A stretch of 59,069 nucleotides of DNA, the filler included, from Dugesia japonica (lineage: Eukaryota), in NCBI GenBank assembly GCA_001938525.1. It is 5 parts of 5 records of this genome, joined end to end, with 100 filler letters (N's around TTAATTAATTAA, not from the genome) between each part and the next. Parts side by side here need not be neighbours in the genome. Positions count along the whole stretch, not along the records: positions 1 to 16,522 come from MQRL01607237.1; 4 more parts are not named here. The stretch is one strand, 5' to 3'. Positions 643 through 39,829 of the stretch are shown piece by piece (position 1 is the stretch's first letter; each line of letters begins with the position of its first letter). The notes below the pieces were generated by a model. The model did no database searches. It was not told the origin of the DNA and saw only the letters and a list, made by a program, of their open reading frames with translations. Made by a program: the position numbers and the translations under genes.

Positions 643-810
643 TGTTGGGGTCCCACCTGAGTTGATGGTGCACATAGACGCTGGCCGGGGAAAAACGGCT
701 CTCAGGGGTACCCTTTCAAGAATTTAAATCTAATTAGATATTCAGTGTGGAGCGGTTGACCTGCAACCTTTACGGGAGGTTCGCACTCACACACCTTTGG
801 TTTGAGTACA
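643..810. ncRNA. Conserved multi-stem structured element, copy 1
   Basis: CCTGAG(656-661)/CTCAGG(701-706), GGCCG(683-687)/CGGCT(696-700), ATCTA/TAGAT, GTGT-GAG...ACCT/AGGT...CTC-ACAC. Homologous stems covary in the other three copies. Strand unresolved. Confidence 0.65.
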
Positions 811-881
811 TTTTTTCCCTATTATTTTAATTATTCAATGAATAAACGACAATACTAATAATAGACTGTATTGATTTTAAA

Positions 882-1243
882 TTACATTTCCTCTAGAGTA
901 CCCGGGTCTCACCACTGGGTAGGCTCTTCTGGAAAAAAATTGAACACCACCGTGTCGTCGTTATCGTCCTATTGTAGGCATGTCACGTTGCCTAGCTGAA
1001 GAGATAGATCTGCAATGTATCTTTTGAAAAAATTGGTTTTGTTTTGGAGTAGCTGTTTCGTTTGCTCGGTTAGGTCGCTTTGTTTCTTTATAATTGTGTC
1101 TAACTTCTTTATCAATGTATTGCGTTGTGACAGATGTCTCAACAGAGAACGCTCCGTTTGACGTTCGTGGTGTCGTTCTAAAAGAAGTCGTCTGATTATT
1201 CGATGGCATCGCCTTAAACTGTTGGGGAATCTAATTCGTGACA
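882..1243 (-). pseudogene. ORF B copy 1: basic N-terminus, coiled coil, acidic C-terminus; two premature stops
   Basis: (M)SRIRFPNSLRRCHRIIRRLLLERH... continues in frame past TAG 969-971 as DDNDDTVVFNFFPEEPTQW*DPGTLEEM*, matching the tails of copies 2-4. Starts at the tttag|TG acceptor. Confidence 0.75.
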
Positions 1244-1355
1244 CTAAATAAGATGCATGATTAGGTANNNNNNNNNNNNNNNNNNNNNNNNNNNNNNNNN
1301 NNNNNNNNNNNNNNNNNNNNAATGTAATAAGAGAAGAAAAACGTTTATTTATAAT

Positions 1356-1675
1356 TTACAAGGTAACAAATCCTAAGGCCTTGATGCCTGAGTCGTTTTG
1401 TCGACCATTTTCTCGGTCTTGGTAGGACCGGATGATCTCGGTAAAAGAGTCTATTTGGGCCTTCCATACCCTCTCCTGTGTATGGGAGGTTTTGGCCTCT
1501 TTCTTAAATGCCATGCCTTTATTCTTATAACGCTTAACCTTGGCCTCGGCTGACGTAGTGGTGGCCTCCCATCGTCGTTTTGCGAGCTTATATAAGTCCC
1601 ATGTGATCTCCATCTCCTCACTTGACTCCTTCAGTTTTTTGGTGGGAACTATGGCACGATTCAACGAGGAATGCA
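1356..1675 (-). CDS. ORF A copy 1: ~106-aa predicted coiled-coil protein of unknown function
   Basis: (M)HSSLNRAIVPTKKLKESSEEMEITWDLYKLAKRRWE..., homologous to 11366-11724 and 15101-15339. Homology starts exactly at taaag|TG; AATAAA at 1344-1349 (minus). Confidence 0.7.
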
Positions 1676-1827: not shown

Positions 1828-2278
1828 ACAACAACAAAAACAAAGGGATGAACTTAAGGAGCTCAAACTCCGCGTGTGTCAAAATTATTATCATTTTCTG
1901 AAACCCCAATGCGGCCTGATTCTGTAATTCCCATAAAGTGTTATTCATAGAATCAGCCAACCTGGTGAAAGGTGGTAGATGTGCAGCTGACACGGGTATG
2001 ATGGATGGACCGTCCTGCCAAACACTGGTGACCTGTTGGGTTTCAGTATTTATGATTGTAGTGCGATGAAGTACTTCTCGGGTACGATCTGGACCGCTCC
2101 GTTGGTGATAAGCCTCACGCTAGGTTGTTGCCCATTTCCTCTCATTATCAGCGTCCTCCCTAGTTAAATTTGTATAATCTGTGAGGACCCCTGCATTTTG
2201 ATCATAGGTATTCCAGTACCTACGAAAAATCACTCTACCAGTGCGGCGATCGTATAGGGTTTCCCAGACGAATTCCAT
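1828..2278 (-). pseudogene. ORF C: ~150-codon GC-richer frame with one internal TAG, unknown product
   Basis: Manual translation MEFVWETLYDRRTGRVIFRRYWNTYDQNAGVLTDYTNLTREDADNERKWATT*REAYHQRSGPDRT... preceded by an atttag acceptor-like site. Absent from the ORF track. Confidence 0.5.
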
Positions 2279-3953
2279 TTTTCTCTAAATAAATTTACAA
2301 ATAATTATATAACACAGAAATTACTTTGATAAAAATGAAATTTAATATCGAGAAATGTATCAATTAAATTAAGCAACTTTTTTTATTATTACAATAAATT
2401 AAAACACTGTAGTTAATTTTGAGTCTATATTACCAACATGATTTTAATTAAGTTAATTTCGAAATTATTAATCCTTATTCTTCGGCGTCTAAATCAACTG
2501 GACTAATGAGCAATTTATAGAAATAAAATCACACTGGCAAATTAACCCATATCTATTTGACAATAATATAACGATAATCGAAATCATAAGCATAATTTTG
2601 TAAAATTCAAGGATTTATTAAACATAACCAATCAGGTAATATTAATAGTTGAAATCATAACGTCGTCGCCTCATAGGGGTAATTACAAATATTCCTTCCG
2701 GTGATGCAGCAAAGGTATCGAATATTAACTAATAAGTCAGCATACTAGAATAAAATCCGACGACACACACGTTGATAATGTTATTGACTTCTGTTCTCAT
2801 CTGGAAAAGGCAACAATAATCATTCTCCCGACTTATTGAAGGTGGCCGATCTAACACCGAACGAGGTTCACGAAACGATGAGTTGGATAGCATCTTGAAA
2901 TTGCGCTCAGGAAGAGGCGATATGGGGTTGAAACCTCCCAGAAAGGTGATCATAAACATAAAAAGAATTTCTCCTCTGTAATTCAACAGGGTACCATTCA
3001 CTTTCATTATAATTCCATTTCTCCGAGTAAATTCCCATCAACAATGTTAAATCAAGGCAAAAAAGAGATAGCAACCGCTGCGATATTCATTAATAATTCT
3101 ACTGCCGATGAAAATATAGTACACACAACATGGAACTGTGTTACTGACACACTAACTCTGATGTGACTCATACCATTTATGCATACTAATTTGCTAGTTC
3201 TCGATTCCTAATTTTGTTATTTATCACTGAATCATAAATAAATTTCGTCGGAATTAATTGACATATTACAGAGCTATAGGTTAGACATGGTGAGAGTTAA
3301 TATTATTGGCACATTCTATCCGTGGTGGCCTGAGCTAAACATAGCATCAAGTAGAGAAAATCCATTTTTCGAAAAAATTAATTGGTTGTATGTTAAAACT
3401 GATGCAACATTCATACTTGATTCATGATTAGTTTACCAGCCCTTTTTCGCATTAAATAATCTAAATTTAAATATAGTTGAAACTGAAAATGATAATTTTT
3501 TTAGTAAACATTTAATTGTTACATAACAACTATGTAATTAAGCAGTAGCGATCTACATTTAACAGACAACATTGATATAAATATAGAAAATACCTACTGA
3601 GTAATTCGAAATTTTTTCTGCAACGGGTTTAATTTCCACAACCAAGCTAAATATCAGTTCTGGTTTACTGTAGATGGCGTACACACAATTTTCTCCGTCT
3701 ATTCTGTATTTCGAGATAATAACGTTATAATTAATCGTTTTTTGTTTTTAAAAATTCAACGCACTTACGAGTTATCAGGTGGTGAATGGTGATTAAATTT
3801 TTTCTTCTAATTTCTTCATGAACAGAGGTTAGCTTAAAATCGTATTGGTGAATTGCCTAAATGTTACAATAATAACTGTTAAATTTCGTAACGAAATTGC
3901 TCTCTTAGCCAAGACAATTATTTTTGCTGATTTTTCTTCTAAATTTCTGGGGG

Positions 3954-4083
3954 CTTAAATAGCTTTCTGGATGCAACCCGGCATCATCGCTATTGGCTGT
4001 CTAATTTTAATTCAAATTTCTTTTATTCTATTGGTGTAGACCTGGATTTCTAAGAATTTTTCACCATTTTCTGATACCATTGG
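3954..4083 (-). promoter_or_regulatory. CCAAT x3 + TATA-like promoter, copy 1
   Basis: Minus-strand CCAAT at 4079-4083, 4030-4034 and 3992-3996, then TATTTAA at ~3955-3961. Same layout as 13155-13346. Confidence 0.55.
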
Positions 4084-4368: not shown

Positions 4369-6607
4369 TGTAAGTAGCATTATTTTAGGAATTTTAAATA
4401 ATATTTCTGAAAATATTTTATTCCTATAAATTAATTACTGAGGAATTTTTACTACTTATTAATGTAAGTAGATTCTTTAGGAATGTTAAATTATATTTTT
4501 TTTAAAAATTATAAAGTGAATATATAAAATGAGGACATGAGAAAGTGAGGATTAGAAAAGGTCACAAAAGTACAAAATTTGGTAAACTGAGATAGTGAAA
4601 TAAACTGAAATTTACTGAAATTATTTATAAATAAAATTTCTATTGTGATGCTTTGGGGATTGTTGCCAAAGCAAATCAGCAATTGCGTGAGTATGAAATA
4701 ATTTAATATATTATACAATTCAATAACTTGTATATTATCATTATATGGAAATCTTATGTCTTAATATCGTTATTATATAATCAATATTAATATAAATAAG
4801 CTATATAGTCGGCTATTTAAATTAAATAATAATTACTTTGAAAAATTTATATTAAAATAAATGATTTGTAACAATCGTGTTAAGCGTTTTTATTTTATTA
4901 CTCTGAGCTGCAGTCCAAGTAGGCTTTAGCTTTTATTAAGTAATCTTAAAAATAGGGTGAAAATAATGAAAATTCGGTCTCTATTTATACTAGAGACCGT
5001 TAATAAATCATGTATAAATAAAATAAATAAATACGGAATTATAAAAATTTTCCATGCAAATATAAAAATTTTCATAAATAAATAAAACTATACTTATATA
5101 AAAATAAAATCTAAAATCCAGTAATAAGGATTTAATTGTTTATAATAAAATTTTTAATAGAGATTCCAAATCAATACATTGAATATAATAACAAGGATTT
5201 GTTTGTTTATAATAATTTTTATTAGAGATTCCAAATCAATAAATTGAATCTAATAACAAGGGTTGGATTGTTTTTAATAAATGGAGATTCAATTTAAAAA
5301 TAAAAATTTGAATTATAATGATATAAGAATTTGCACATTCAGAACAAACAACAGAAGTCTGTAACACACAGAAGTCGCAAAATTAAATCACAAAAATAAG
5401 TCTACTTAAAGTTGTGAAATCAGTGAAATAAATAAAGTTCGAATAATTGCGCTGGTCTTTGTTGTTTAGTGGACTGATTGATTGATTAATGCTCTGATGG
5501 TATGAGCTGATTGACTTGGAGTTGTTGCTCAGAAGACTGACNNNNNNNNNNNNNNNNNNNNNNNNNNNNNNNNNNNNNNNNNNNNNNNNNNTTTGTAACA
5601 ATCGTGTTAAGCGTTTTTATTTTATTACTCTGAGCTGCAGTCCAAGTAGGCTTTAGCTTTTATTAAGTAATCTTAAAAATAGGGTGAAAATAATGAAAAT
5701 TCGGTCTCTATTTATACTAGAGACCGTTAATAAATCATGTATAAATAAAATAAATAAATACGGAATTATAAAAATTTTCCATGCAAATATAAAAATTTTC
5801 ATAAATAAATAAAACTATACTTATATAAAAATAAAATCTAAAATCCAGTAATAAGGATTTAATTGTTTATAATAAAATTTTTAATAGAGATTCCAAATCA
5901 ATACATTGAATATAATAACAAGGATTTGTTTGTTTATAATAATTTTTATTAGAGATTCCAAATCAATAAATTGAATTTAATAACAAGTGTTGGATTGTTT
6001 TTAATAAATGGAGATTCAATTTAAAAATAAAAATTTGAATTATAATGATATAACAATTTGCACATTCAGAACAAACAACAGAAGTCGCAAAATTAAATCA
6101 CAAAAATAAGTCTACTTAAAGTTTTGAAATCAGTGAAATAAATAAAGTTCGAATAATTGCGCTGGTCTTTGTTGTTGAGTGGACTGATTGATTGATTAAT
6201 GCTCTGATGGTATGAGCTGATTGACTTGGAGTTGTTGCTCAGAAGACTGACTGTCAAGAATAATTCATAGTATTCAAACAAATAATCTGATAAATTTTTC
6301 AATAAAATNATAAATATTCTACTTTACATAAAAACTTTAAAATTATTTTNAAAAATATCAACTTTTTAATTTAATGAAATATCTCATTTTACATAAAAAT
6401 TTTATAAGATATTTTACCTAATAATTTCATTAAATAAATTAAAAATATTTAATTTTACATAAAAATTTCACAAAATATTTTAACTAATAATTTCATTAGA
6501 TAAATCAAAAATATCGATTTGATTTTGTGGAATATTTTATTTTATAAAATTATATAAAAATTAAAGAAAGATTTCCCAGAAATTTAAATCTATAAATAAT
6601 TCTTACA
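4369..6607 (-). mobile_element. 3' LTR of a Gypsy element (contains a ~0.7 kb duplication across a gap)
   Basis: Minus-strand PPT AAAGAACGGGGA (6608-6619) is followed by TGTAAG at 6607. Matching inverted TGTAAG at 4369 (alternative 4463). Confidence 0.6.
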
Positions 6608-7400
6608 TCCCCGTTCTTTAAAATATTTTTCAATCTTTTTCACATTTCTTTCAATCATTTCTTTCTTTGTCTTTTGATCTGTTTTCTACCTTGATTACCA
6701 TATCGCCTCCAACTTGAAAATGTCTCTTTGTTGGTGTCAACTCTCCGGATTCTTCATTCTTTTCTCCATTATTGAACTATCTTTCTCTATGTATTTTCTT
6801 ACCGAATATCACTTCTGCTAGACTTATCCCCAAAGTCTTCTGGCTTGTTACATTTAGTCTATATTCAATTTCTGGTAATAACTTTTCCCAATTTTTATTC
6901 TTTTTATCTTTGTAATCTCTGATCGTTCTGAATGGTCTCTCTACTATTCCATTTGTATTATGATGATATGGACTTGAAAAGCAAATTGTTATATTCATTG
7001 AATCTGTCATCTTTTTGAAGGCTTTCGATTCGAAGGTCTTCTCACAATCTACATGTATCTCTTTTGGGGCACAAAATCTCAGTATCCATTTATCTTTAAT
7101 CGTTTTGTTTATTGATTCCTCATCTTGTTTAACTAGGGCTGTTAATCATTTGTATCTGCTAAGTTTATCTATTATGACACATATATATCTTTTTCTTCCT
7201 GTGGTTTCTTGGAATGGCTCACAGATATCAATATAAATACTTTCAGATGGTTCATTATCCTTTAATTTTATAGTTTCCTCCTTTGTTCTAACTGTTGTTA
7301 CTTTGTTCATTTGGCACACTGTATATTCTTTAATTACACAGTTTCTCTCAAATCTTCCATATCATATTCATTTTTTAAATAATTTATCACTTTTTCCGTG
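6608..7400 (-). mobile_element. Ty3/Gypsy integrase remnant + PPT
   Basis: FSSPYHHNTNGIVERPFRTIRD...WEKLLPEIEYRLN..LGISLAEVIFGK rve core; frameshifted. Confidence 0.9.
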
Positions 7401-7982: not shown

Positions 7983-8737
7983 TGTTGGGATGAAACACCT
8001 GCTACAGAGAATAAAAATGGCGGTAGGTAAAGCTGAAAGTGAAAAGATAGTCACCAAATGAGGAAACCAAGAATTTAGACAAAGGAAAGTCACAGTTGAA
8101 AGAAGGAAATAATTAAAGGAAAAACGAAGAGTGGCAGTTAAAACCAACGTAAAAACCAACAAAATCTAACGTTACAGCAATAAAAAACTCAGAAATAAGA
8201 AAGCCAAAAAGAAGAAAAGAAGTAACAGAAGCTATCAGTTAGATAAAGAAAATAATGATTAACAATTAGTTCATTAGACAAAACTAAGAAAATCATATTG
8301 AACGAATAATGGGAGAAAGAGAAAATAAATTAAAGGAATTAATTAAATTAATTAATGAAAGAAAAACGACAAAATTAAATTATATTTAGATCAGAAAAAC
8401 AAAGAAATGAACATGTAATTAATAATTAAGAAGAAAATAAAATAAATAATCTAATTATTTAAATAAAATAAATCGTACAAATTAAAATGATTTATTTTTT
8501 AAAGAAAACTAAATATTTTATGAAAATATGGCAAAAACGACGTCTTCCCACGGTGACAAAATTAGCAATTAAGAAGATTCTGGACAATAAAAAATTTGAG
8601 ACTTCGAAAATCTACGTTAAAAAGTCATAGTAAAACTAGGAAAGAAGATACAAGGGTTTGAAAATTGACCTATGGTTTCGTAATCCAAAAATATCAACCA
8701 ATAAGAAGGACTCATGTGACGATCAAGCCAATAGAAG
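7983..8737 (+). mobile_element. TGTTGGG-element promoter-side fragment (inverted relative to copies 1-4)
   Basis: TGTTGGGATGAAACACC at 7983 matches the reverse complement of the copy-2 right end (13808-13825). CCAAT boxes at ~8698 and ~8728, then interrupted by the next copy. Confidence 0.55.
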
Positions 8738-9800
8738 TGTTGGGGTGAAACGCCCGTTAAAAAGGAGAAATAAAGCCAAAAAGAACCCAAATCAACAAAA
8801 GAACGGCAGGACCATTATAGCTACCGATAATGAAATGCAGAAAATAAAGCGTGAAATAACCATTGGAAAAAGAACAAAATAAACTTGGAGATGGATACGA
8901 AGGACCGGATAACTTAAAATTAACACACATCAGTATTGAGAATTAAAAGAATTATCCAATTCATAATAAAAATCAAGAAAATCATTATGGGAGAATAATG
9001 TATTTTAAAAAAAAATTTAATTTATTTTGAAATAAAAAGAAGTAAAATTAGCCAAAAATTCGTTTTACCCGAATAACTTCGCTCAAGGAAATCGGAAAAA
9101 ATCAGGGTAAGAAAATACAGAAGGAAAATATCAAGATGCATTGAAATTACCAAGAAGAAAAAACTTACCACCATCCAGAAGGTTGCTGCAGGGTCTTCAA
9201 GATCGGGCCAATAAGAGATCTAGAAATATAATTAAAACAAAGACACAATTGTCATGTGTCACTCTAAAAATAACTGCCAATTGCAGTTCCAAAAATCTAA
9301 AAATATTTTAGAGAATNNNNNNNNNNNNNNNNNNNNNNNNNNNNNNNNNNNNNNNNNNNNNNNNNNNNNNNNNNNNNNNNNNNNNNNNNNNNNNNNNTGC
9401 GATATAAGGAATCATGAGATTAACAGAAAAAACAACAAAAAATAAAATTTTACCGAGTTTTTCAAGATACATTGTTGATATTCAAAAGGAGAACGCCAGC
9501 AGAATTTCTTTCGCAAAACAAATAAATATTAAAAATCGCGGTCATCAGTTATCGCGCATCGGAAGAAAAAACAGAAAGCATAATTATCGTGACCAACTAC
9601 CCCGGAAAATAATTCATTTGTCTCGTGTGGTTATCAACTGTTGCAGAAATTCCTATCAAAAAGAAATATTTTATAGTAAGTGTTGTCATGTAATTTTAAT
9701 TTAATATAACTTAAAGTTGAATGTGATTGCAATTTTATATTTTAAATTAATATTTTAATATACAGTGATATTCCATAACATCTAAAACGTTTATTTTTTT
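8738..9800 (+). mobile_element. TGTTGGGG-element promoter-side fragment (inverted), nested in the previous one
   Basis: TGTTGGGGTGAAACGCCC at 8738. 9208-9316 aligns with the reverse complement of ~13240-13350. Leader motif TGTTGCAGAAA then A|GTAAGT at 9675/9676. Right end approximate. Confidence 0.7.
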
Positions 9801-10567: not shown

Positions 10568-10740
10568 TGTTGGGGTCCCCCCTGAGTTGAGTGAAAATAA
10601 CGCGGCTGGGGAAAACAGCCCTCAGGGGAACCCTTTCAAGAATTTACCCTACCGTCCCTGGGGTAGGTTTTCAGTTTATGGCGGTTGACCTTACTCTTAA
10701 TGGAAGGTACACACCAATAAACCTTTGTATTCGGGTTCAA
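10568..10740. ncRNA. Conserved multi-stem structured element, copy 2
   Basis: CCTGAG/CTCAGG, GGCTG/CAGCC, CCTACC/GGTAGG, GTTTAT/ATAAAC, ACCTT/AAGGT. Conserved GAGTTG, CAAGAATTTA, GTTGAC, GGGTTCAA. Confidence 0.65.
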
Positions 10741-10817
10741 TGATTTTTCCTTTATTGTTACTATTGAAAGGAAGAAATTACAATTTTGGATACAGACATT
10801 TTATTTTATAAAAATAT

Positions 10818-11237
10818 TTAAAGTAAATCCAGCGCCCCTGTATCTAGCCATTGGTTTGTTTCCGTTACCACGAAGTTGAAAGCTGCGATGTCGTCTTCGT
10901 CATCCCATTGTGTTACAGATGAGTTGCCTATTCGATGGGACAGATCGGCAATATATTGTTTTAAGAACTCTATTTTCCGCATCAACAGCTGTTTGGTTTC
11001 GGTTTACAAAGCTTTAGTTTTAACCGCCAGATCGTTTTGCTTTTTTATAATTAAATCTAATTTTTTAATCAGCTGATCCCNNNNNNNNNNNNNNNNNNNN
11101 NNNNNNNNNNNNNNNNNNNNNNNNNNNNNNTCAGCTGATCCCGTTGGTCTAGGTGTTTCATAAGTGCCCTATCTGTCTTACGCTTTAGGTGTCGTTCAAC
11201 CAGTAAGCGGCGCATAATTCTATGACACCTTCGGATA
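10818..11237 (-). pseudogene. ORF B copy 2 (gapped, frameshifted)
   Basis: IRRCHRIMRRLLVERHLKRKTDRALMKHLDQR... and tail WDDEDDIAAFNF...QWLDTGALDLL*. AATAAA follows at ~10800. Confidence 0.75.
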
Positions 11238-11365
11238 NNNNNNNNNNNNNNNNNNNNNNNNNNNNNNNNAAAAAAAATATAATTAAACTGATGAAAACTC
11301 AAGTTCATAATTAGAAAAGACAATTAAACAGTTTATTAAACTCAAATAATTAGTAAACATGACAC

Positions 11366-11724
11366 TTAGGAATGGTTGGCCTGAGTGCCCTTATCTATGA
11401 AGAGAAGGGCCAAAGGTGTCGCTGCTCTCAACTTCAATATATTTTCCATCAAACTATTCTCCCGCTCCTCATAAGAATGGACCATCTTGGTAAACGTCTC
11501 AACCTGGGACTTCCACACCCTCTCTTGCTTCTGGGTGGCGTCCGCTTCGGCTTTAAATGTTAAACATTTCCGCTTGTAGCGTTTTACTTTAGCGTCGGGC
11601 GCGGCGATCTCTGCTTCCCATCGCCTTTTGGCTAATCTATAGAGATCCCATGTGAGATCGAGATCTTCACTTGTCTCACGTAACTTTTTTGTCGGTGCCT
11701 GGGATCTATTCAACTACGAATGCA
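11366..11724 (-). pseudogene. ORF A copy 2 (TAG at codon 4)
   Basis: tttcag|TG CAT TCG TAG TTG AAT AGA..., then TKKLRETSEDLDLTWDLYRLAKRRWE. AATAAA at 11332-11337. Confidence 0.75.
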
Positions 11725-13154
11725 CTGAAAGATAAACCCTAGTGGTAATAACAACCATTATTTATTAATAAAAATATTATTCATAATCATAGGACTTATA
11801 ATGAAAAAAAAAATAATAATAATGATAATTGGTGATAATAATAATACTAAAATGTTTGAATACAGTGCCCGTAATGGCAAAATTATTATCCATGCTTATA
11901 ATGATCATTTGGTGGTAAGACTACCGCTAGTTTCAACCACACGGATATCACTAATGATGAGAATAGCCTTGATCAGATTTTGAATCTCAAAAGTCAAATA
12001 TAATGATGAAATATAGACTAGTGGGGATCCCTATTTATTAATACCAAACGGTGTACATAATCATTAGTGTATGAACGTAGAAACTCTTTTTAATTCCGAA
12101 TGATATTTTTAACAATAATCTACCCGAAGGTCATGTTTTAAATAGTCGTGCTGAGAGGTTGCTTAGTAACACCAGTTACTACCAGTGGTCACATTGCACA
12201 CTAGTTTTAACCAGTTGTAGGTGTGTCTAATCGTTATGTCAATACGAGGGTTAAATATGCAACATGACTCATTTACTGGTGCCTAATTCTATCAGTGAAT
12301 ATTATAGCGACAATTCTGCATTTCTAAACATTACAGATGTACTCCCTGATCAAAAAAGAAATCCCATCATCTATTCATCTTGCTATTGCATGGAGTTAAT
12401 GGAATTATCATTATTGGATTTTATCTATTTCGCTGGAAATTCCCTCACCGATTTAAGTTAATATAGTAATTATATGATTGTTTGTTTTTTATAAAATAAA
12501 TAGTTGTTATCACTGTATTTTATCTTTACTATAATATATTGTAAGGTATTGGTTTTCGTGCTCGAGAGTCACCCACAATAAAAAATGAAATGATGCAAAT
12601 TTACCACGGATTTCCCCCTCTAATAACGGACTGTATTTGGTTATGTAATTCGAATCTCGTTAGGTCACACAAACGTGTGTGATGCAATTCATCAACTGTA
12701 ATAAGTGTGTAGTGGACTATTTAATATTTATCAAATAAAATTCATAGTAAGAGGTAGATATATTTAGTTTCAATTTATTACAACCATTATAATACGTTAT
12801 ACATAAAAAAATTATTTCTCAACATAAGGAATAAAATTTTACTTTTTGAATTGAATTACAGAGTTTCTGCAACAGGGTCGTAGTTAGTATGACTGATTAG
12901 AGCGGTTCCTTTCGATAATTATTTTTTTCTTCCTTGTCTGGAAATCGTTGTCTATCTTTCTGATCCTTGATTTATAGTTAGACGTGATTCAATTAAATAG
13001 TATTTACTGTAAGGTTTTCTCGTAAAATTGGATAATTCTTGTTTTTAGTTGTTTGTTGAATTTCTTGAAGCACACAGTTTTTAGTTAATACTTGCGTCTT
13101 ATTGACTTGAATTAGATTGAATTAATGTCTGATCTTTTGCTAAACCGGGGGTCC

Positions 13155-13346
13155 TTTTATAGGATTTTCTGATACACCCCGGCACCTTTCTCATTGGTAG
13201 GTATTTTTGTTTTAGAATTTTATTGGTGTTAGTGCTGATATTCCAGAATTTTCTTAGATTTTTGGAGTCCTGATTGGCAGGTATTTTTAGAGGGCTATGT
13301 GATGGTTCCTTCTTTGTTTTATTTTTATTTTTAGGTATCTGATTGG
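13155..13346 (-). promoter_or_regulatory. CCAAT x4 + TATAAAA promoter, copy 2
   Basis: Minus-strand CCAAT at 13342, 13273, 13222 and 13193; TATAAAA at 13155-13161. Confidence 0.6.
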
Positions 13347-14541
13347 TTCGATCTTGGAAACCCTACAGTACCTTTCCGAATGATGGTAANNNNNNNNNNN
13401 NNNNNNNNNNNNNNNNNNNNNNNNNNNNNNNNNNNNNNNNNNNNNNNNNNNNNNNNNNNNNNNNNNNNNNNNNNNNNNNNNNNNNNNNNNNNNNNNNNNN
13501 NNNNNNNNNNNNNNNNNNNNNNNNNNNNNNNNNNNNNNNNNNNNNNNNNNNNNNNNNNNNNNNNNNNNNNNNNNNNNNNNNNNNNNNNNNNNNNNNNNNN
13601 NNNNNNNNNNNNNNNNNNNNNNNNNNNNNNNNNNNNNNNNNNNNNNNNNNNNNNNNNNNNNNNNNNNNNNNNNNNNNNNNNNNNNNNNNNNNNNNNNNNN
13701 NNNNNNNNNNNNNNNNNNNNNNNNNNGCTTTCCTGGACATTTATGTAGTTCACTACCTTTCTTTATCTTGTATTTGATGACCACCGTGGTTTTAGTCTTC
13801 TTCATCTGGGTGTTTCACCCCAACAATTTTCAAATTTTTAAAAAAATTTTATGGAATCCGGATGAGCAGTTTATGTTGTTTAAATAATGTGGAAATTTTT
13901 AAATTTTTTAAATGAAGTTTTTATGGGAATCCGGAATCTCCGAAATTTCGAAAGTTTTTGTTAAGATTTTTTCACCAATCGATGCAGAATTCGATAGAGA
14001 TTATTTTTCACAAATAAAGACTTTTCGAAAAAATTATTTATCATCTTTTCATGACATGATCATGTGAATTAAATAGAGAAATTTTCGCTGATTCTAAATA
14101 TATATACCTAAAATCGCCAAAGTTTAACTTTATAAAATATTTTAATTTTTAATTAGAGTGTTAACTTGGATTAAAAATTTTTCATTATAATTTCTTAATG
14201 TGTTGAAAATTTATAATAGTATTGATGAAATTTGAAATAATATTTGAATAATATTGATAGAATTAAATTAAGTATGATGGATTTTTAATATTTTTCAAAT
14301 AATTATCACCTGAGTTGGGTGCGGAGAAAAATGGCTGGGGGAAAAAGACAGCTCTCAGTGGACTCGTTCAAGAATTTAGCTAATGCCCCTTGCTTGGTCT
14401 TAAATTTGAACCAGTTGACTCCCAACGCTTATTTAGAGTACTCGCTTACATCTTTTTATCCGGGTTCAAGATTTCCCCTAATTTTAATTTATAAAAAAAC
14501 TGTAACAACAAAATTACAAGAAGAGTTTATTTGTCACCAAT

Positions 14542-14875
14542 TTACAAGTAATTTAGAGCACTCGGGTCTAACCACTGGGTAGGCTCACTATTTGTGAAAC
14601 CGAAGGTGGCCTCATTATTGTCGAGATTCCAGCGAACCCAGGTTTTCTGTTCCAGCCAGTTTGATAGGTTGGCGATGTACTGCTGCAAGAATTCAATTGT
14701 ATGGATGAGAATTTGTTTTTTGACGATAAGATCTAATTTTTTTATTAAACGATTCCTCTGAGTAAGATGGCGCAAAAGAGCTTTTTCATTCTGACATTTA
14801 ATATGCCGTTCTAGTAAAAGTTTTGTATGGGGCGATGGCACAGATGAAGACTGTTGGACAACCTTATTCGTGGCA
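14542..14875 (-). pseudogene. ORF B copy 3
   Basis: tttatag|TG CCA CGA ATA AGG = (M)PRIRLSNSLHLCHR, then a 1-nt frameshift, KLLLERHIKCQNEKALLRHLTQRN...EPTQWLDPSALNYL*. AATAAA at 14526-14531. Confidence 0.75.
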
Positions 14876-14970
14876 CTATAAAATAAATAGATCATAATCA
14901 CTTTTAAAACAAAATATTTAGAATCAAACACAAAGAAAATACAACAGAAAAACATTTATTTATAACTGTT

Positions 14971-15339
14971 TTAACTAAGAACCCGGCTTCTATGAACTAC
15001 GAGTTCGTGTAGCCTTATCAATCATTAACGGCTCCAGTCGAATACTTTTCCTTAACTCAAGCATGTCGGTTACCAGTTTATTCTCCAGGTCATGGAGGGA
15101 CTAGATGATATCAGCAAAAGATTGTTTCCAGGCACATTCCTGAGCAACGGAGGCCTCTGCTTCTTCTTGATAACTGCGACATTCATTCTGATACCACTTT
15201 ACCTTGGGATTTGCTGCAGCTATTTCGGTTTCCCATTTTCGCTTCGCTAATTTATATAGATCCCAGGAAATTTCTATGTTCTCACTGTCTTCTCGAATCT
15301 TTTTCGTGGACGTCACCGCTCGATTCAGGGGTGAATGCA
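14971..15339 (-). pseudogene. ORF A copy 3
   Basis: attcag|TG CAT TCA CCC = (M)HSPLNRAVTSTKKIREDSENIEISWDLYKLAKRKWE. Premature stop at 15101; AATAAA at 14955-14960. Confidence 0.75.
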
Positions 15340-15807
15340 CTGAATAATTTGATGTTATATTAAATCAATGGCTAATGCGACGAGACAGAAAAGGAAACAC
15401 TGTTTTTTCTCAAAGATACTACGTTATTTAAATATTTAAAAAGTTATAAGAATATCACAGCAAAATCATTACTATCAATATTACTTATGCATGTGGTTAC
15501 AAATAAAATAAAATGCTTAAAACAGGTAGAATAAATTTCTTTAAAGGGTATAAGCTAAGGCGTTTATAAAAAAGTAAAACAAAAGGTAAACACAGAATCC
15601 ATACTCGGTATTGGTTGTGGGTGCTGCATTCTTAGCATCTTCATTGGAAGTCGGGTTCCTGATGCTCCATAGTAAGTTTGTGATAAACGCACATACCGTC
15701 GGGGCTGGGGCAGGTGTTCTTTAGGTAAACTGGATTACGAGACTCTGGGGACCATTACAATTTTGGTAGTGCTGGTAGTGCCATAATTATAGTGATAACA
15801 ACAGTAT

Positions 15808-16522
15808 TGTTGGGATCCTACCTGAGTTGTGGTAAAAAAATTATGGCTGGGGGAAAAAATCAGCCCTCAAGGGATCCCTTACAAGAATTTACCTTATGTC
15901 TTTTATAAGGTCTTCGATGTGAAGTAGTTGACTTCCAGCACTTATTTGGAGTACGTACTTACACATCTTTTTTATTTGGGTTCAACATTTCCGAGTTACT
16001 TGAATATAAATATAAAAGCAAGCTCAACAACAAAATTTCGAGAATCATTTATTTAAGTTTAATCACATAGCTAATGCTCCAGGGTCCAACCCCTGGGTGG
16101 GCTCGTCATTCTCAAAATTGAAGGTGGCCTCATCGTCATCGCTATTCCACTTAGTCCATAAACTTAATTCTAGACGGGTGGACAAATCAGCGATGTATCG
16201 ATTCAGAAAATTAATCTTATTTTTCAACATTTGTTGGGTATATTTGGCTAGTTCTCCTTGTTTTTTATGATGATATCCAGCTTCTTAATTAGGCGGTTGC
16301 GTTGGATAAAGTGCCGTAAAAGAGCACGTTCATTTTGTCGCTTTATGTGCCTCTCTAAAAGGAGTTTTTGGATAAGTCGGTGACACCGACGGAGGCTAGT
16401 TGTAGTTGAATTCTAGGTACTACAATTAAAAATATGAGGAATCTTGACAACCAGATGAAACAAATAAGATATCAAATTGATACTAATAAGATGTATTTAA
16501 AATTAAACAATTGAAATTCTAA
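15808..16522 (-). mobile_element. TGTTGGG-element copy 4 (structured end + ORF B, cut by gap)
   Basis: TGTTGGGATCCT at 15808; structured element to 15985. ORF B remnant ~16063-16419 (SLRRCHRLIQKLLLERHIKRQNERALLRHF...WNSDDDEATFNFENDEPTQGLDPGALAM*). Acceptor is ttgtag|TA. Confidence 0.8.
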
Positions 16523-16566: not shown

Positions 16567-16578
16567 TTAATTAATTAA
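16567..16578. other. Assembly linker TTAATTAATTAA (also 27617-27628, 39914-39925, 48425-48436)
   Basis: Identical 12-mer with stops in all six frames, embedded in N runs four times. Confidence 0.9.
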
Positions 16579-16622: not shown

Positions 16623-17000
16623 AAATGCGACATTAAAAGACATATAGAGTAAAGATTGGACTGAATTACTGCCAGAAATAGAATTTGGATTAAATTCAAC
16701 GTGGCAAAAGTCTAAAAATACCAGTCTAGCGGAATTTATCTTTGGAAAGAAATAGCAAGTGAATACTGGAACCAACAGGTAACAGAGAAGACGGCACCAA
16801 TGACGACAACCAAAAAGACATTTGAAGATATAGAGGAAGTGCTAGTAATAAATGAAAACAGGAACAAAGATCAGGAACGTTTAGAGAAGCCTTACCAGAA
16901 AGTAAAAAAAGTCCACGACCAAAGATACTTATTGCAGAGAGATGACGGGAGAGGAATAAAGATAAATGTGGAAAAGTTAAAGAATTTTTTTGGGGGGGAT
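16623..17000 (+). mobile_element. Gypsy integrase C-terminal remnant with G-rich PPT
   Basis: DWTELLPEIEFGLNSTWQKS...SLAEFIFGK, and ...KINVEKLKNF followed by GGGGGGGA at 16992-16999. Same family as 6608-7400. Confidence 0.8.
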
Positions 17001-20510: not shown

Positions 20511-22152
20511 TAATTTATGCTTGTTTAAACGAATCAATTTAATTAATATTGTTTATACAGGTATAAATACCTATTTGAAAATGAATTATTCCTAAATAAT
20601 GATTGCGAATATTAATTACAGAGGAAAAGTTGATCGAGAATTGACTAGAAAAATGAAATTTTCCAAGTGGAAAACCAGCTCAAGTTGTGGAGAAAACCAT
20701 TAAGTATATCCTTGGTTTCTTTCAATCAGGAAGTTGTAAAATCATGCAGTTCCTTTGAAACCGCCATTGTTATAGGTTCATTGTAAAACTTCAACAATGG
20801 TTTTGCAATAAATAAACATTGCATGCGACAATAATAAAATTTGCATCGAATTTTATATTTTCTATTCATATAGTTTTAGTAATTCATAACTAAAATTCGC
20901 TATAAAAAATGTTTTAAGAAAATATTTAGATCTTTATTTTCTATTTCTGTTTGGTGAGTTACTCGTTCTAAGGGTGGCCCGTTAATTATTTCTATTTTTT
21001 TGTTATAACAAATGTTCATTAAGTTTACTGTTTAATGAGTTCATAAAAAATGAGCCATTCAAAAAGTGTAAATTGTCTAAATCCATCAAAGGATCATTAA
21101 AGTTTTTCTTTAAATCATGGGTCATAAATGTGCTTAAATTTGGTCCACAATGGAGAATTCCAGCCAATTAAAATGGATTAAAAAGATTAATTTATTCGAA
21201 ATTAAATCAACATTTTCATTATAATATAATATGTTTAATTAGTAGTACTATTTATAATAGTGTTGTATATAGTGGTACAAAGTGTTACAGCATTAGTGCG
21301 GCCCGAGAAATCATTTGAATTGTTTTTAGCAGCAGAAACCTTTCGTTCTGAAATATTTCAAATTTTAACTGCAAAATCACCAAAACGCAACCAATAAATT
21401 AGCATATCTTTATTTTATATTTGATGACTTGCATTTTACATATTCGAACTCAAATGTGTTCCTTGAATTAAATAATTGTGATTAGATTATGAACAAATTT
21501 AGTCTTAATTATTTATTAAAAATTAGGATTTAAAATTGCATTTTTTAAAACAAATTAAATAATTCATTAAAATGAAAGCNNNNNNNNNNNNNNNNNNNNN
21601 NNNNNNNNNNNNNNNNNNNNNNNNNNNNNNNNNNNNNNNNNNNNNNNNNNNNNNNNNNCGTACAAAGTCAAAATATAGAATTATTATTGTGAGATGATTA
21701 CTCAATCATCTTTCCGTGCTAGTATAAATAAATTACGTTTGATTGTATGTGTGTATATCAGGTATGTTGACTTATTTGTTTTAGTTATTATTTCATAGAT
21801 TTTCTCAAGACTGCTGGATTCTAAAACAATATATATAAAAGCCGATGATGTCATTTTAGTGAGAAAATATATTTTGGAAACTTTATTTGAACTTCGTGTT
21901 AACAAAAACGAAAAAAAAATTTCGATCGAAGCTTTTATTTTAAATCATTTCTGAAAAACGATCAATGGTTACGTCCAAACAAATATTCTCACAATAATTG
22001 CAATTGTAAAAAATTAAATAACCTTAACAATTTCAGACTCAGCTTTTTCTTTGAAATTATTTTTATTAAAAACTAATTATTTTAAAAATTATTTTTTTAT
22101 AATTAAACTTTTAATAAGTCTTAATGTTTTGTCTAAGCAAAATTGTCTATGT

Positions 22153-22838
22153 CAGAGGTCGGCAACTGGCGACTCCGGAGCCATTGGCGGCTCTTTGATT
22201 CCATATGTAATTTTTTCCTAATTGATGTCATCGCGAGCCCAATTACTTTTCCGTCGTTGTTCTACGAGCTTATTGCACAATTAAATTAAGTATTCATTTA
22301 ATATAAAAGCTTGATCAAAATTTTGATTTTTTTATTGATATCGAATTGTTATCCAATATCAATAAAAAAAATCAAAATTTTGATCAAAGCTTTTATATTA
22401 NNNNNNNNNNNNNNNNNNNNNNNNNNNNNNNNNNNNNNNNNNNNNNNNNNTAAATGAATTCTATAAAACGATCAATGGTTATGTCCAACAATTATTCTCT
22501 CAATAATTGCAATTGTAAAATAAATTAAGTATGATGTAATAATTAGTACTCTTCTTAATTTCGAAATCAGTTAATTACTGACATCCCGGGTGAAAGCTGT
22601 CAACTTGCCATGTTAATTCTACGATTGATCGAGCACCTTCACCAAGTAAGTACTTGTATATTTGTATGAACAATTATGAATGCAAGAGAAATACAAGTGC
22701 AACTATGTATTGATAAAATGATTAATTTAAAAATATTATTGTATAATTAAACTTACTCTAAGTTTGTGGCTCTTGAAAACGGAAAAATTGATATTTTATT
22801 CATATTCAGCTCTTTTGGAAAAAGCTTGCCGACTTCTG
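22153..22838. mobile_element. Non-autonomous hAT (SPIN/Charlie-like MITE)
   Basis: TIR CAGAGGTCGGCAA / TTGCCGACTTCTG; 8-bp TSD GTCTATGT / GTCTATGC. Confidence 0.85.
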
Positions 22839-23795: not shown

Positions 23796-25347
23796 GATTT
23801 CTGCTATTGGTAAGTTGAAATAAATATATTAATTAAAAAAAATTCATTTAATTTCTGAAATTTTAGATTTTTACTTATTTTTAAATAAAACATTTCATGA
23901 CACAAGCGCTGAAATTTGTTTTATTTTTCACATACATATTGAACTTCCCTTGAATGTTTTAAATAATTTATATTTTAACCCTGTGAGGTATACATACTTC
24001 AGAATTATCTAGATTCATGTTAAGCATAATAACGAACTATTTTCAAGATTTATTCGACAACAATTATTAAAAATAAATTACACAACTGTTTTACTATTGA
24101 TTTCTCAAATTATAACTTTACAAATTACAATTTACCAAATACAAATTGTTTATAAAAATAGCAAATTACTACACTAATTTTAATAGAACAAAAAGAACTC
24201 ACAGAATATACCTTGTTGTAAAACGTAATGATTGAATGAAATTACATGTTGCTAATTTATATTTTCCATTTTATAAATCCCGAAACTTACATAAATCTAA
24301 CAATTAAAACAACACAAAATTTTCGTAATTAATCATTTTCCTCAGAAACCACATTAACGTCAAATAAAGTTGCAACTACAGATATCTTATAATAATTGAA
24401 TAATTTTGTTGCAATATAAAGCAATAATCAATACAAATTTAATTTATTTATTTTCTTTCATATTTTGAGGTAGCCAATTTAACTACAACCATCAATACAT
24501 TCACTTAGTATGGCAATACTAAATTTAGGCCACAAAAGTAGCCTTTTGCACTAATAGTTATTTTTACCAGGAACTTTTCTTTTGTGAAATTTCGGTTATT
24601 TTCAATTAAAAAGTAAACAACATGTAACTATTTTATTCTATATTTATCAACTTGAATTTTATATCCCAAATTCAAATGTGTATTCATTGCAATAAATAGC
24701 TGTGACTAGATTATGAATAAAATTTGGTTGGAATGTATTTGTTCGTGATTATTTAAATTTATAAGTTAAATGAAAAAAACATCAAGCGTATCGTTATGAA
24801 TAAAAATTAACAATTGCAGTTCTGTTTGTCTCAAGTAATATGCATATCCTATGAAATAGAATGAAAATTTCAAATATAAATAAATAAATTGTCGCTTTAG
24901 CATATAAAATCAAAATATTAGAAAAAAAAATAAAAAGAAATAATCAAAATTAAACGTGCAGTCAATTTTTGGCGATCATCAAATCTGCTAACAATTTGAA
25001 TTATACTCTTTGTTCAATGGTATATCGATTTTTTAAAAAAATCGCATGAATTACTATTGCTTATTCAACAATTATTGAGTTAATAAAGCAAAACAGAAAT
25101 AAATGGAATTAAATTTAAAATGTAACCTTAAATTGGAACACTCTGTATATCTCATCTCATCTAGAAACTTTCATACTGTAGAACATATAAAATAAATATA
25201 GAAGAATTATAAGACTCCAAAAAAAGCGATAAACGATGTTTAGCAATTAGCGGAATCAATATGAATAAATTTTAAGGTTTTGCAATTGCAATTATAGCGA
25301 GAATAATTGTTGGATGTAATCATTGATCGTTTTTTTAGAGTTCATTT

Positions 25348-25487
25348 AAAATAAAAGCTTCGATCAAAAAGGTTTTTTTGTTTTCTGAGATTGATTTGAT
25401 ACTTCGATAGGAAACGAAGACAAAGTCGAAATATCGAAGCAATCTCAAAAAACAAAAAAAAAGCTTTTTGATCGAAGCTTTTATTTT
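25348..25487. repeat. Inverted repeat of Penelope-type 3' tail around a broken hammerhead
   Basis: AAAATAAAAGCTTCGATCAAAAAG ... CTTTTTGATCGAAGCTTTTATTTT arms. Centre GAAGACAAAGTCGAAATAT is identical to part of the 29444 hammerhead. Confidence 0.75.
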
Positions 25488-25766
25488 TAATCAAATTTTA
25501 AGGTCACCATAAAAATATTACATTAATAAAAATAAATAAATTAACAATTTATTAAAAAAAATTAAAATAATTATTAATAAAAATCACTAAATTAATGAAT
25601 ATAATAACCATTTTTTATACAGTTGAATAAACAATGTGAATTTGGTGTTTTTGATTAGATATTTTCCAGAATTATTTAAACAAGTGATTTATTGAAACAA
25701 ATATTTAAAAAAATGTTCGAAAACAGCCTCGAGTCAGAGAGAAAATTCGATTCAATTATTTATTTT

Positions 25767-26334: not shown

Positions 26335-27480
26335 TGTCTTTTGACAGTCACCATTTGACATTCACATTTCATTGACGACAATTCTTGTAATACATTAACC
26401 CCGTTCATGATCATTCATGCAATGAGATTTATATGTTATTGCATATTCATGTCAGTATTCATACTTTTGAGATAATACTGCTCCAACGGTATCAAAACTT
26501 GCATCGATGTAGAGTATAAATTCTTTTCAGAAATCTGGTAATGTCAATATTGGAAAGCTTATTAATGCTAATTTCATTTCTTCACAAAAATCATACTATA
26601 TCGATTTTGAATTATTTTTCTCACACAGAGTTTCTAATATTTTTAATTTCTTTGGATAATCTCTAATAAACTTCCGATAATATTTAAATATGCCTGAGAA
26701 ACTTTTCAAGCTTTTTACACATTTTGATTTTCAAAATGACTGGATAATTTAAATTTTAATCAGATCGGTTTGAATACCTTTGTCGTTTATAATATGATCT
26801 AAAAACTTGACTTCTTTTTTCAACGGTTCGCATTTTTCTGGATTAATCCTTAATCCTGCGTCTTTAATTGTGTTCAAGACCTTTTTCAATAGAATATAGT
26901 GTGTTTCCATTGAATCGATAAAAATCAAAATGTCATCTAAATATCCCATTACTCCATCCTTCCACATCTCTTTTAATATCTTATTCATCAATTCTTGGAA
27001 TGTTCCAGGAGCTGTCGCAATGCAAAATGTCATTCTATTAAAACAAAATTGACCCTCACTTGTGGAAAAAGCTGTTTTTTCCTTGCGATTCCTTATCAAG
27101 CCTTGATTAGTAATAAGCGTTGGCTAGATCTATAGAGCTAAATTATTTAGCACTATTTAATGTATCCAAAATATTTTCGACGTTTGGCATAAGGAAGGCT
27201 TGTCTTTCCGTAATTTGATTCAATTGTTTAAAATATAGACACCATCTGATATCTTTCCTTTCTTTTTCCAATACACAAAGGTGTATTCCAAGGTGAATTG
27301 CATCTCTTGATTATATCATTTTCCTCTAAATTTTTAATAGCATCATTTATTTTTATTCTGTATAATCTCGCTATGCCACTGCTAAAAATGGCTTTCTTTT
27401 TTTAGAATAAAATAAAAACTTGGACTTACTTCTGAATTAATCGATGTTTGCTCATTTTGTCGTTTGAGAACATTTAGCTC
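26335..27480 (-). mobile_element. Gypsy RT/RNase H remnant
   Basis: KTAFSTSEGQFCFNRM...APGTFQELMN...YLDDILIF; FILYIDASFDTVGAVL; frameshifted. Confidence 0.9.
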
Positions 27481-27672: not shown

Positions 27673-29525
27673 GTAATGAAAATCAAATTATCAAAGAAAT
27701 GAAAAATTTTAAATCAATTATCATTACACCAACAGATAAAACCAATAAATTGGTAGCTCTATCTGAACAAACATACAATGAATTTTTTACTGAACATTTA
27801 AATAATTACGAAACAATAACCCACAAAAGACTACCAACTACAGAAGAAATTAAACTCAATAAAAAATTAATTCAAATAGCAAAAAAATATGAAGACCCAA
27901 AAATATCTTTACTTTTAACAGTCAAATATCATGAGCCAGTTCTATCCTTGATGTACTGTGTTCCTAAAGATCACAAAACAACAATGAAAGGAAGACTTAT
28001 TGTTAACGCTTCTGACACTCCTCCTACTAAATTATGCAAACTTATGGCAGATATATTAAAATCACTATTAAGTTTCATTTTGGCACATTTAAAGAATAGT
28101 TATGAGTTTATCGAATTAAATTAAAAATTATAACTGGAAGAGTAATGATGAATTTTGTTCATTAGATTTAACAAATCTATATGGATCAATTCCAATTGAA
28201 TGACCTGAAAATATGATTGATATTATAAGTGACTTCTTTGAAAAATACAAAGAACATACAAATATTCCAGAGATCACCAAAAATGATTTCAAATGTCTTT
28301 TCAATTTGTGTCTCTTTTCTGATAGCAATTTCATCGGCAAACAACTTTTTAAACAGAAAGGTGGTCTTGCTATGGGTAATAATTTATCTCCAATTCTAGC
28401 GATAATTTTCATGAACTTCATTGAAAATCAAATANNNNNNNNNNNNNNNNNNNNNNNNNNNNNNNNNNNNNNNNNNNNNNNNNNCATCTATGGTTTAGAT
28501 ACATAGATGATATTTTCTTTGTAACTAATTCTCCTTTAGAGAACATTTTAGAATTAGTTAACAGTATTAATAATAACATTAAATTCCCTTTGGAGAAATC
28601 AACTGGCTTTCAGATTCCTTTTGTGGACACTTTAATGCAAAAAAAACCTTGTGAAACATTAACCACCAAATTATATATGAAACCATTATACAGTGGACAT
28701 ATACTACCATCAGCCAGAAAATAGGTATAATTAAAGGGGAAAGAATTCGAGCTGAGAGACTATCTTCAAATAAAAAAATGAAATTGATTTCTCTCAAGTT
28801 GATTAAAAACAAATTCTTAAATAACGCCTACCCAAATAAAATTATATCAAAATATTTATCTTTGAATACAAAGCATAATAATATCAAACCAAAAACAAAC
28901 ACAGTTATTAAGTTACCTTTTATTGATGAAAAATGTAGCCAAATTATGCAAAAAATAATAAATTCTAAATTCAAATTCTAGCATCTTTAGGCATCTAATT
29001 ACAGAAACCAAGACAAAACGTTTGTNNNNNNNNNNNNNNNNNNNNNNNNNNNNNNNNNNNNNNNNNNNNNNNNNNNNNNNNNNNNNNNNNNNNNNNNNNN
29101 NNNNNNNNNNNNNNNNNNNNNNNNNNNNNNNNNNNNNNNNNNNNNNNNNNNNNNNNNNNNNNNNNNNNNNNNNNNNNNNNNNNNNNNNNNNNNNNNNNNN
29201 NNNNNNNNNNNNNNNNNNNNNNNNNNNNNNNNNNNNNNNNGAAAACACTAAGAACAAGCTACATTTCTACACTACATAGAAAAAACATGAATTACTAATT
29301 AAAGAAGACAATCCTAAAATCAATGTAATTAATAATAATTAAATTAAAAAAAGGTAAAATTAACCAATTAAAATTTAATAAAAATAAATTAATTCAAAAA
29401 AAATTTCTATTGTAAAAATAAATATTGAATGAATTGAAAATTCAATTCCTGAAGAAGACAAAGTCGAAATATAGAATTATTATCAAAAACCAAAAAAACA
29501 AATTTTGATCGAAGCTTTTATTTTA
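27673..29525 (+). mobile_element. Penelope-like retroelement (RT, thumb, GIY-YIG tail), degenerate
   Basis: IITPTDKTNKLV; PKDHK..GRLIV; SLDLTNLYGSIP; QKGGLAMGNNLSPILA; RYIDDIF; hammerhead at the 3' end. Confidence 0.9.
29444..29478 (+). ncRNA. Minimal type I hammerhead ribozyme in Penelope pLTR
   Basis: AATTC-CTGAAGA-A-GAC-AAA-GTC-GAAA-TATA-GAATT: stem I AATTC/GAATT, stem II GAC/GTC, palindromic ATAT stem III. Confidence 0.75.
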
Positions 29526-29622
29526 ATGAATAATAATATAATTTATATTAATAATATGAATATTATTAATAATACTAATGATAATAATATGAATAATAAT
29601 GATTATAATAATGAAAGTAAAA

Positions 29623-29679
<57 letters not shown>

Positions 29680-39200: not shown

Positions 39201-39252
39201 TTAAGAGGAAAAGGTAGAGGTTAAAAACATAATAAATCAAAACAGTTAACCC

Positions 39253-39316
39253 CTGACGAAAACAAAGTCGAAAATTAGAATTATTATAAAAAAAAATTTT
39301 GATCGAAAATTTTTAA
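39253..39316 (+). ncRNA. Degenerate hammerhead + tail, inverted 5' pLTR of the minus-strand Penelope
   Basis: CTGACGA-AAAC-AAA-GTC-GAAA-ATTA-GAATT followed by TTTTGATCGAA; stems I and II are mismatched. Confidence 0.6.
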
Positions 39317-39829
39317 TGAATTATTATTATCATTATTACTATTATTATTATTGTAATTATTATTAACAAATAACAAAGCAAAATTTTAAAATAGTTTCTG
39401 ATTTTAAATATTATTTAATTAAAGAACTTTTATATACTTTTCGAATTTCACGTGAAAAAATTCATTTATCAATAAATTTTTGTAAAACTCTTATAAAAAT
39501 GAAAAAATCTTTTAGAAAATAATTTCTTAAAATTTTATTTTTATGATTTTAGGTCAAATCAACTAATGTTATCATATTTGTTGATGCCTATTATCATAAT
39601 TTTATTAATGATTATCATTATTTAATTAATCAGTTTTATTTATGATCTCAGAAAAAATCAACAAATTATATCATATTGGTGTTGTTTGCTATCATATTAA
39701 AATCACAGTCAATAAAAAAATACAAAAACAAAACTTTTTGAGGAATTTATTAAACTATGAACAAATGTATTAATAGAAAGAAACAACAATACAAACTAAT
39801 TCTATTTACCATCATATTGCATTTTTAAA

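Follow-up and report, generated by a model that had tools for sequence, protein, structure and literature searches.

Positions 882-1675 of one stretch of the Dugesia japonica genome (GenBank assembly GCA_001938525.1) carry, on the minus strand, two small coiled-coil reading frames, ORF A and ORF B, that recur in diverged copies of a repeated element and raise the question of what kind of genes they are and how a mobile element could express them. We addressed this question in the window, by which we mean the whole stretch of 59,069 nucleotides that was analysed (five joined parts, filler included), made of AT-rich eukaryotic DNA (GC 0.12-0.38 per kb) in which gaps and broken mobile elements are numerous. 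The reading that we favour, to which we give as a whole a probability of roughly one half, is that the two frames are broken coiled-coil genes of what is likely a solo LTR, that they were used as alternative spliced terminal exons, and that ORF B likely encoded a nuclear regulator. Our confidence in its parts falls from the identity of the LTR to the splicing, and from the splicing to the function.

Coding status and predicted proteins

The conserved motifs quoted in the earlier note on this DNA were all located on the minus strand, in three copies for ORF A and in four for ORF B, and A precedes B in every copy that has both (Table 1). The ORF A segments are 51-57% identical (pairs reported, among three segments). 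Past purifying selection had been read from the many synonymous differences, and a codon-based test had been proposed. This test, run with the Nei-Gojobori method on natural in-frame segments from which codons with a stop or N were removed, found an excess of synonymous change: pN/pS was 0.29, 0.46 and 0.42 for ORF A (three of three pairs; 87-88 codons) and 0.25-0.45 for ORF B (six of six pairs; 72-74 codons), that is, 0.25-0.46 in all nine pairs, with a bootstrap upper bound of at most 0.61 in each. A shifted-frame control on ORF A gave 0.80-2.35, and codon-position identity was 0.26-0.43 at third positions against 0.70-0.88 at second positions. Since synonymous sites are saturated (pS 0.80-1.0), the true dN/dS must be lower than pN/pS, and the low ratios together with this saturation indicate that the copies come from old lineages in which selection kept both proteins.

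No copy of either frame is intact in the window, all of them having stops, frame breaks or gaps. ORF A is interrupted by stops at 11714-11716 in c2 and at 15101-15103 in c3, and the c1 version diverges from these two past 1407. The c1 version of ORF B contains stops at 969-971 and 909-911, and those of c2, c3 and c4 have frame breaks, the c3 version being also short by about nine codons. Judging from the sequence, ORF A and ORF B are real, decayed genes. A 137-aa ATG-initiated ORF (14542-14955) was not accepted as the genuine ORF B, since its initial part lies in a different frame from the conserved start.

Table 1. Features of the element copies (c1 to c6) in the window. A slash in a motif marks the predicted splice junction.
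Feature	Positions	Strand	Details
c2, complete copy	10568-13825	-	3,258 bp, 419 N
c3, truncated copy	14305-15800	-	ORF A, ORF B and clipped structured end
c4, partial copy	15808-16500	-	ORF B and structured end
c5, 5' part of another copy	8738-9700	+	TGTTGGGGTGAAAC end; CCAAT at 9208 and 9277; donor candidate A/GTAAGT at 9676
c6, additional 5' end of related copy	7983-8060	+	
Promoter-like region, c1	3955-4083	-	CCAAT at 4083, 4034, 3996; TATA-like at 3961
Promoter-like region, c2	13155-13346	-	CCAAT at 13346, 13277, 13226, 13197; TATAAAA at 13161
Candidate splice donor, c1	3592-3598	-	A/GTAGGT, predicted
ORF D remnant, c1	2600-3007	-	~135 codons; putative gene; lineage-variable
ORF C remnant, c1	1832-2284	-	~148 codons; phase-0 acceptor candidate; own ATG at 2278; one stop; lineage-variable
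ORF A exon, c1	1675-1356	-	acceptor-like AG/TG at 1675
ORF A exon, c2	11724-11366	-	AG/TG at 11724; early stop
ORF A, c3	15339-~14990	-	
AATAAA after ORF A, c1	1344-1349	-	
ORF B exon, c1	1243-882	-	acceptor-like AG/TG at 1243; two in-frame stops
ORF B, c2	~11236-10818	-	gaps, frame break; start concealed by N gap
ORF B, c3	14875-14542	-	
ORF B, c4	16419-~16066	-	
Structured 3' end (U5-like), c1	643-815	-	terminates in CCCCAACA; covarying pairs; no Rfam family

The coiled-coil character claimed for both proteins stands. AlphaFold2 models ORF A (3 sequences) as one helix over residues 26-109, with a mean pLDDT of 72.9, and ORF B (6 fragments) as one continuous 83-residue helix over residues 7-89, with a mean pLDDT of 93.9; hydrophobicity follows a heptad period of 3.5-3.55 in all four segments (shuffle p 0.006-0.045). 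The Arg-rich N-terminus and acidic/aromatic C-terminus described for ORF B are also present in c1, with 9 Arg in residues 1-30 and a final stretch of 29 residues of which 9 are acidic and 4 aromatic, and an Arg/His-rich N-terminal helix followed by an acidic-aromatic tail is kept in all four copies.

Protein, structure and contig searches found no homologue of either protein, which fits their description as orphans. A word search of 5.8 billion proteins returned none for ORF A, at near or longer lengths, or for the c3 version of ORF B (for longer proteins fused to A the search is weak evidence and used A as its only query). A full HMMER scan, for which the A profile was the only query, gave the same result over 1.84 billion representatives, and viral contigs searched with A gave no match. 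The best scores in the ESM Atlas (0.76 and 0.81) lie within the range of shuffled proteins, the best E values among PDB sequences (0.19 and 0.68) are not significant, and a viral fold library gave 0 matches to the ORF B model, which as a single helix is uninformative as a query. The orphan status had been set against a match to ordinary Gag or host domains, and none was found by Pfam or by protein searches; Pfam yielded nothing beyond sub-threshold coiled-coil matches to BRE1, KIF21A and HAUS1, and no match to the bZIP profile (basic region plus leucine zipper). Paralogy between A and B was not detectable when the two were compared. A prediction of an A-B complex scored 0.00 in two runs made with neither alignments nor folded controls, and is evidence neither for nor against binding. 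A literature search, with most subscription papers and repeat-library reports outside its coverage, found no paper on ORF A or ORF B. Both protein families appear to be undescribed in the collections searched.

A basic helix with an acidic-aromatic tail is a layout typical of activators, and that of ORF B suggests a nuclear regulator, which ORF A may assist as partner or scaffold. The competing account that survives best also places the genes in an LTR, but makes A and B structural or adaptor coiled coils, serving in particle assembly, in RNA transport or as decoys for host proteins, without action on the RNA structure at the far end of the element, which would then serve only in priming or packaging. 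The models are indeed plain long helices with no recognised nucleic-acid-binding fold, there is no bZIP or Rev/Tat match, and ordinary roles are known for U5 structures in LTR elements. Against these points stand the Arg/His-rich helix and acidic-aromatic tail shared by the four ORF B copies, and on balance we consider this account unlikely.

The element and its far end

ORF A and ORF B belong to an element of 3.3 kb, one copy of which is complete. Its termini form a perfect 9-bp inverted repeat (TGTTGGGGT) with TG...CA ends, beyond which end-to-end identity drops to 1-4 of 10, and ATTT flanks it on both sides as an apparent 4-bp target duplication, which is weak evidence alone because ATTT is common in AT-rich DNA. 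The order within the element is promoter motifs, variable ORFs, A, B and RNA structure, and its conserved core consists of A, B and the final ~175 nt. The middle varies by lineage: the ORF C and ORF D remnants of c1 have no significant match in c2, c3, c5 or c6 and no match in Pfam, and no long ORF was found in c2, where 419 bases are N. A weak look-alike of ORF C was seen by eye in c3 (~15600-15720, minus strand), and tblastx did not confirm it. Within c2, at 11860-12480 on the plus strand, antisense to A and B, disrupted frames containing Cys and N-x-S/T words resemble a secreted protein and may represent an insertion or a captured gene.

The depth of contigs indicates that the element family is large. 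We placed 2,103 contigs of the DNA-like run X1 on c1, with a summed depth, which is no copy number, of 17,580 over the structured end and 7,726 over ORF A, compared with ~10 for near-identical contigs. Some ends of the element lie inside or adjoin copies of the same family: the end at 8738 is 755 nt past the one at 7983, and c4, at 15808, abuts the upstream part of c3. This suggests nested insertion or local clustering.

It is probable, in our view, that the 3.3-kb unit is an LTR, likely one that a large Ty3/gypsy retrotransposon left behind as a solo copy. Solo LTRs have TG...CA ends with a short inverted repeat, as found here, a target duplication of 4-6 bp, as found in the one complete copy, and an internal Pol II promoter and AATAAA on one strand, both present at the level of motifs. 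None of the three visible 3' ends in the window has a primer-binding site and none of the three visible 5' ends a clear polypurine tract, which counts against the LTR although such an absence is expected for solo LTRs. Gag-pol is not joined to any element end within the window either, and since no end is joined to any of these three features, the LTR is an assignment that we infer.

A whole non-autonomous element, Ginger-like or similar, would account for part of the same evidence. According to the available part of their description, Ginger1 and Ginger2 DNA transposons have TGTNR ends, 4-bp target duplications and inverted repeats of 40-270 and 50-180 bp, respectively (PMC2836005). If the 3.3-kb unit were such an element, with its integrase acting in trans and A and B as cargo, its TGTNR ends and 4-bp duplication would fit Ginger2, and the lack of gag-pol, primer site or purine tract beside any end in the window would need no comment. 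No transposase was seen, but non-autonomous copies lack one. The inverted repeat has 9 bp here, and the ends are asymmetric, one having a promoter nearby and the opposite one a covarying RNA structure. The short inverted repeat, the promoter and the structured far end are better fitted by an LTR, and we hold the DNA transposon to be decidedly improbable. A Polinton origin was rejected, because Polintons have AG...CT ends and 6-bp target duplications, which do not fit the element.

The far end of the presumed LTR is structured. Its last ~175 nt have a fold common to four copies, with two-sided changes at 9 of 29 pairs and a covariation score matched by none of 500 shuffles, the structure having been derived from the same small alignment that scored it. 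Single-copy folding z-scores are weak in three of the four copies (-1.3, -0.8 and +0.9) and reach -3.6 in c4. Seven cells of the structure are G-U on the minus strand, so that this strand is favoured. Rfam has no family for the structure (two chance-level matches), and the terminal motif was not found in viral and metagenome contigs. Because the structure is located downstream of the AATAAA of ORF B, it would occur only in read-through RNA.

The window holds remains of other elements. Gypsy-type fragments at 26749-27033 (-), 45638-48300 (+), 6600-7400 (-) and 16700-17000 (+) include a reverse transcriptase (Pfam RVT_1, E 9e-16), a weak aspartic protease match and integrase-like pieces recognised by eye, and their apparent ends are unlike those of the 3.3-kb element. 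A long ORF at 32741-34363 (-), which we take to resemble a hAT-type transposase, has no transposase match in Pfam. Fragments at 27699-28506 (+) presumably resemble a Penelope-type reverse transcriptase, and two related remnants at 43853-44531 and 52273-52809 (-), with no Pfam match, are assumed by us to resemble the end of a Polinton-type DNA polymerase. A dispersed repeat, short and built around a GATCGAAGCTTTTATTTT core, occurs in both orientations (21900-22531, 25271-25607, 29437-29647 and 39241-39366), possibly as a miniature DNA transposon. The near-identical 677-bp duplication of 4865-5541 and 5592-6251, which spans an N gap, is probably an assembly artefact, and TTAATTAATTAA, found in the middle of N gaps at 16568, 27617, 39914 and 48425, is probably a scaffolding marker and not genomic sequence.

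Predicted splicing and expression

The earlier note was right on selection and on the coiled coil, and missed that A and B look like spliced exons, each with a poly(A) signal, and that the structured RNA is placed past the signal of B. The promoter and poly(A) signals are called from motifs. Promoter motifs lie ~480-670 nt from the 5' end in c2, and they are in register between c1 and c2 and partly in c5 (two CCAAT, then a gap). All three copies have an A/GTA donor candidate ~300 nt after the TATA, 21-33 nt past a common GTTGCAGAAA; words of this type occur in 5.8% of random 30-nt windows. The A/GT donor of c2 is weak (4/6 match) and has a better donor lacking the A 17 nt upstream, and c1 has a perfect donor lacking the A at 3768.

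On the acceptor side, the conservation of ORF A begins at the TG after a pyrimidine-rich AG in three of three copies, and the three-way identity is 10 of 15 bases right after this AG versus 0-5 of 15 before it. ORF B starts at AG/TG in two of its three visible copies (c1 and c3) and at AG/TA in c4, the start in c2 falling in a gap. For comparison, TG comes next after only 5% of the 4,762 AGs in the window, and a pyrimidine-rich tract is present as well in 0.9%. No upstream ATG is conserved for A or for B. For ORF B, c3 and c4 offer no upstream ATG in frame, and c1 has no Met in the first 118 codons; ORF B thus needs an upstream exon. ORF A has in-frame ATGs 22 nt (c1) and 34 nt (c2) upstream of the acceptor, absent in c3, which makes an unspliced start possible for A. 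An AATAAA follows A in three of three copies, lying each time between A and B, and another follows B in three of four, the hexamer being common in AT-rich DNA (7 in c1, 9 in c2).

These signals are compatible with a simple scheme. A non-coding leader of ~300 nt, transcribed from the element promoter, would end at the A/GT donor, and its A would be joined to the AG/TG of either A or B, so that the ATG would be built by splicing. Each short mRNA would end at its own AATAAA, making A and B alternative terminal exons. We find this scheme somewhat likely, and A and B would then most likely be accessory proteins, translated from LTR transcripts that are short, spliced and polyadenylated early. The flatworm spliced leader ends in AUG, and trans-splicing of the AG/TG sites onto such a leader was rejected because it would set A and B out of frame.

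RNA reads of the family exist in small numbers. At 80% likeness, 11, 180 and 22 raw reads of RNA runs X11, X12 and X15, respectively, fell on c1, nearly all of them less than 95% alike; the end structure took most of them, ORF A and the promoter received some, and ORF B had none in any of the three runs. Four X12 reads cross the acceptor of A into pyrimidine-rich, intron-like sequence and therefore look unspliced, and eight X12 reads with two start places run across the TATA region. Both sets point to read-through or unspliced RNA of other copies. No splice joint was found in the three raw runs (6-25% of each) or in three RNA-like contig sets; the RNA depth is very low and spliced reads of diverged families could escape detection, so that splicing is neither shown nor excluded by these data. 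The contigs of X8 and X9, taken for RNA by guess, extend over both exons and introns; they may be DNA and were for this reason left out of the expression evidence. None of the public runs listed as containing the region is on record as RNA.

That A and B are instead ordinary exons of one or two longer spliced genes, or start unspliced at upstream ATGs, with no spliced start codon, is very improbable: the in-frame upstream ATGs of A in two of three copies, the alternative donors and the unspliced reads across its acceptor would suit this explanation, but the ATGs differ in position and are missing from c3, the phase-1 frames upstream of the three A/GT candidates have no ATG (in the stretch inspected), and AATAAA separates A from B in all three copies.

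Possible role and comparison with known systems

Under the favoured reading, the spliced messages would be short products of the LTR, and ORF B, with its basic helix, coiled coil and acidic-aromatic tail, would activate or promote the read-through RNA, the sole RNA with the downstream structure. We put this role forward tentatively. A more ambitious version takes the LTR as a multi-gene unit, in which the leader lends the A of the start codon to alternative exons that have separate poly(A) sites, and protein B, perhaps with protein A, flips expression from short mRNAs to read-through genomic RNA by way of the structure; it seems improbable to us. If it were true, a Rev/Tat-like feedback switch would have evolved independently in a Ty3/gypsy element, and many solo LTRs could supply it in trans.

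The usual view holds LTRs to be non-coding and their solo copies to be dead ends. If a very abundant LTR-like unit does contain selected protein genes, its solo copies could still make element proteins, and an invertebrate retrotransposon would carry accessory genes in the style of complex retroviruses. A start codon built by splicing would silence A and B in unspliced genomic RNA, so that ORFs upstream of gag would no longer be a problem, and it would keep the two genes out of sight of gene finders.

Rev, Tat, Rex, Tas and the sag of MMTV come from small spliced accessory genes, with an Arg-rich segment and with structured RNA only in the longer transcripts; sag is encoded in the LTR. ORF B of c1 has such an Arg-rich segment (the 9 Arg in residues 1-30), and differs from these proteins in being a continuous helix with an acidic tail and in sequence and structure, Pfam, PDB sequences and the viral fold library having given no significant match to Rev or Tat.

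Related cases are already known in Drosophila, and we compare them here from the available parts of the published accounts. In the MDG1 group (412, Mdg1, Blood and Stalker), sORF1 and sORF2 are located at the 5' end of the LTR-element RNA, encode ~70-110 aa and are under purifying selection; they are unspliced and lie outside the LTR, a short transcript results from a poly(A) site that separates them, and sORF1 is nuclear (10.1101/2025.03.14.642691). Like A and B, these are two small selected accessory ORFs with a poly(A) signal between them, and they set a precedent for early polyadenylation. Unlike these unspliced ORFs, located after the 5' LTR and before gag, A and B are contained within the TG...CA unit, with acceptor-like starts and long polar helices, and no homology was found. 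In springer-subclade errantiviruses, the start codon of env is split by a splice junction, with the AU coming from the leader (10.1101/2023.08.03.551782). The split start codon in a Ty3/gypsy-type element is common to both cases, as a prediction only for A and B; the leader there supplies AU to env, whereas here it is predicted to supply a single A to two alternative non-env exons.

Closer in taxonomy, the planarian Burro/GYPSM1 Gypsy elements are very abundant and have accessory ORFs, an internal region of up to 25 kb and a total length of more than 30 kb (PMC6431247), from which multi-kb LTRs are implied. They resemble the present element as very abundant Gypsy-type elements with multi-kb LTRs and accessory ORFs. 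The difference is that accessory ORFs and polyprotein domains are described for them in the available part of that account, and not genes in the LTR. ORFs inside LTRs are likewise not mentioned in the available parts of PMC13524379, PMC8532177, PMC5408684 and PMC11410931. By the tests made, A and B are members of none of the Rev/Tat, bZIP and sORF1/sORF2 groups; by analogy, the system is one that would work like the accessory genes of complex retroelements.
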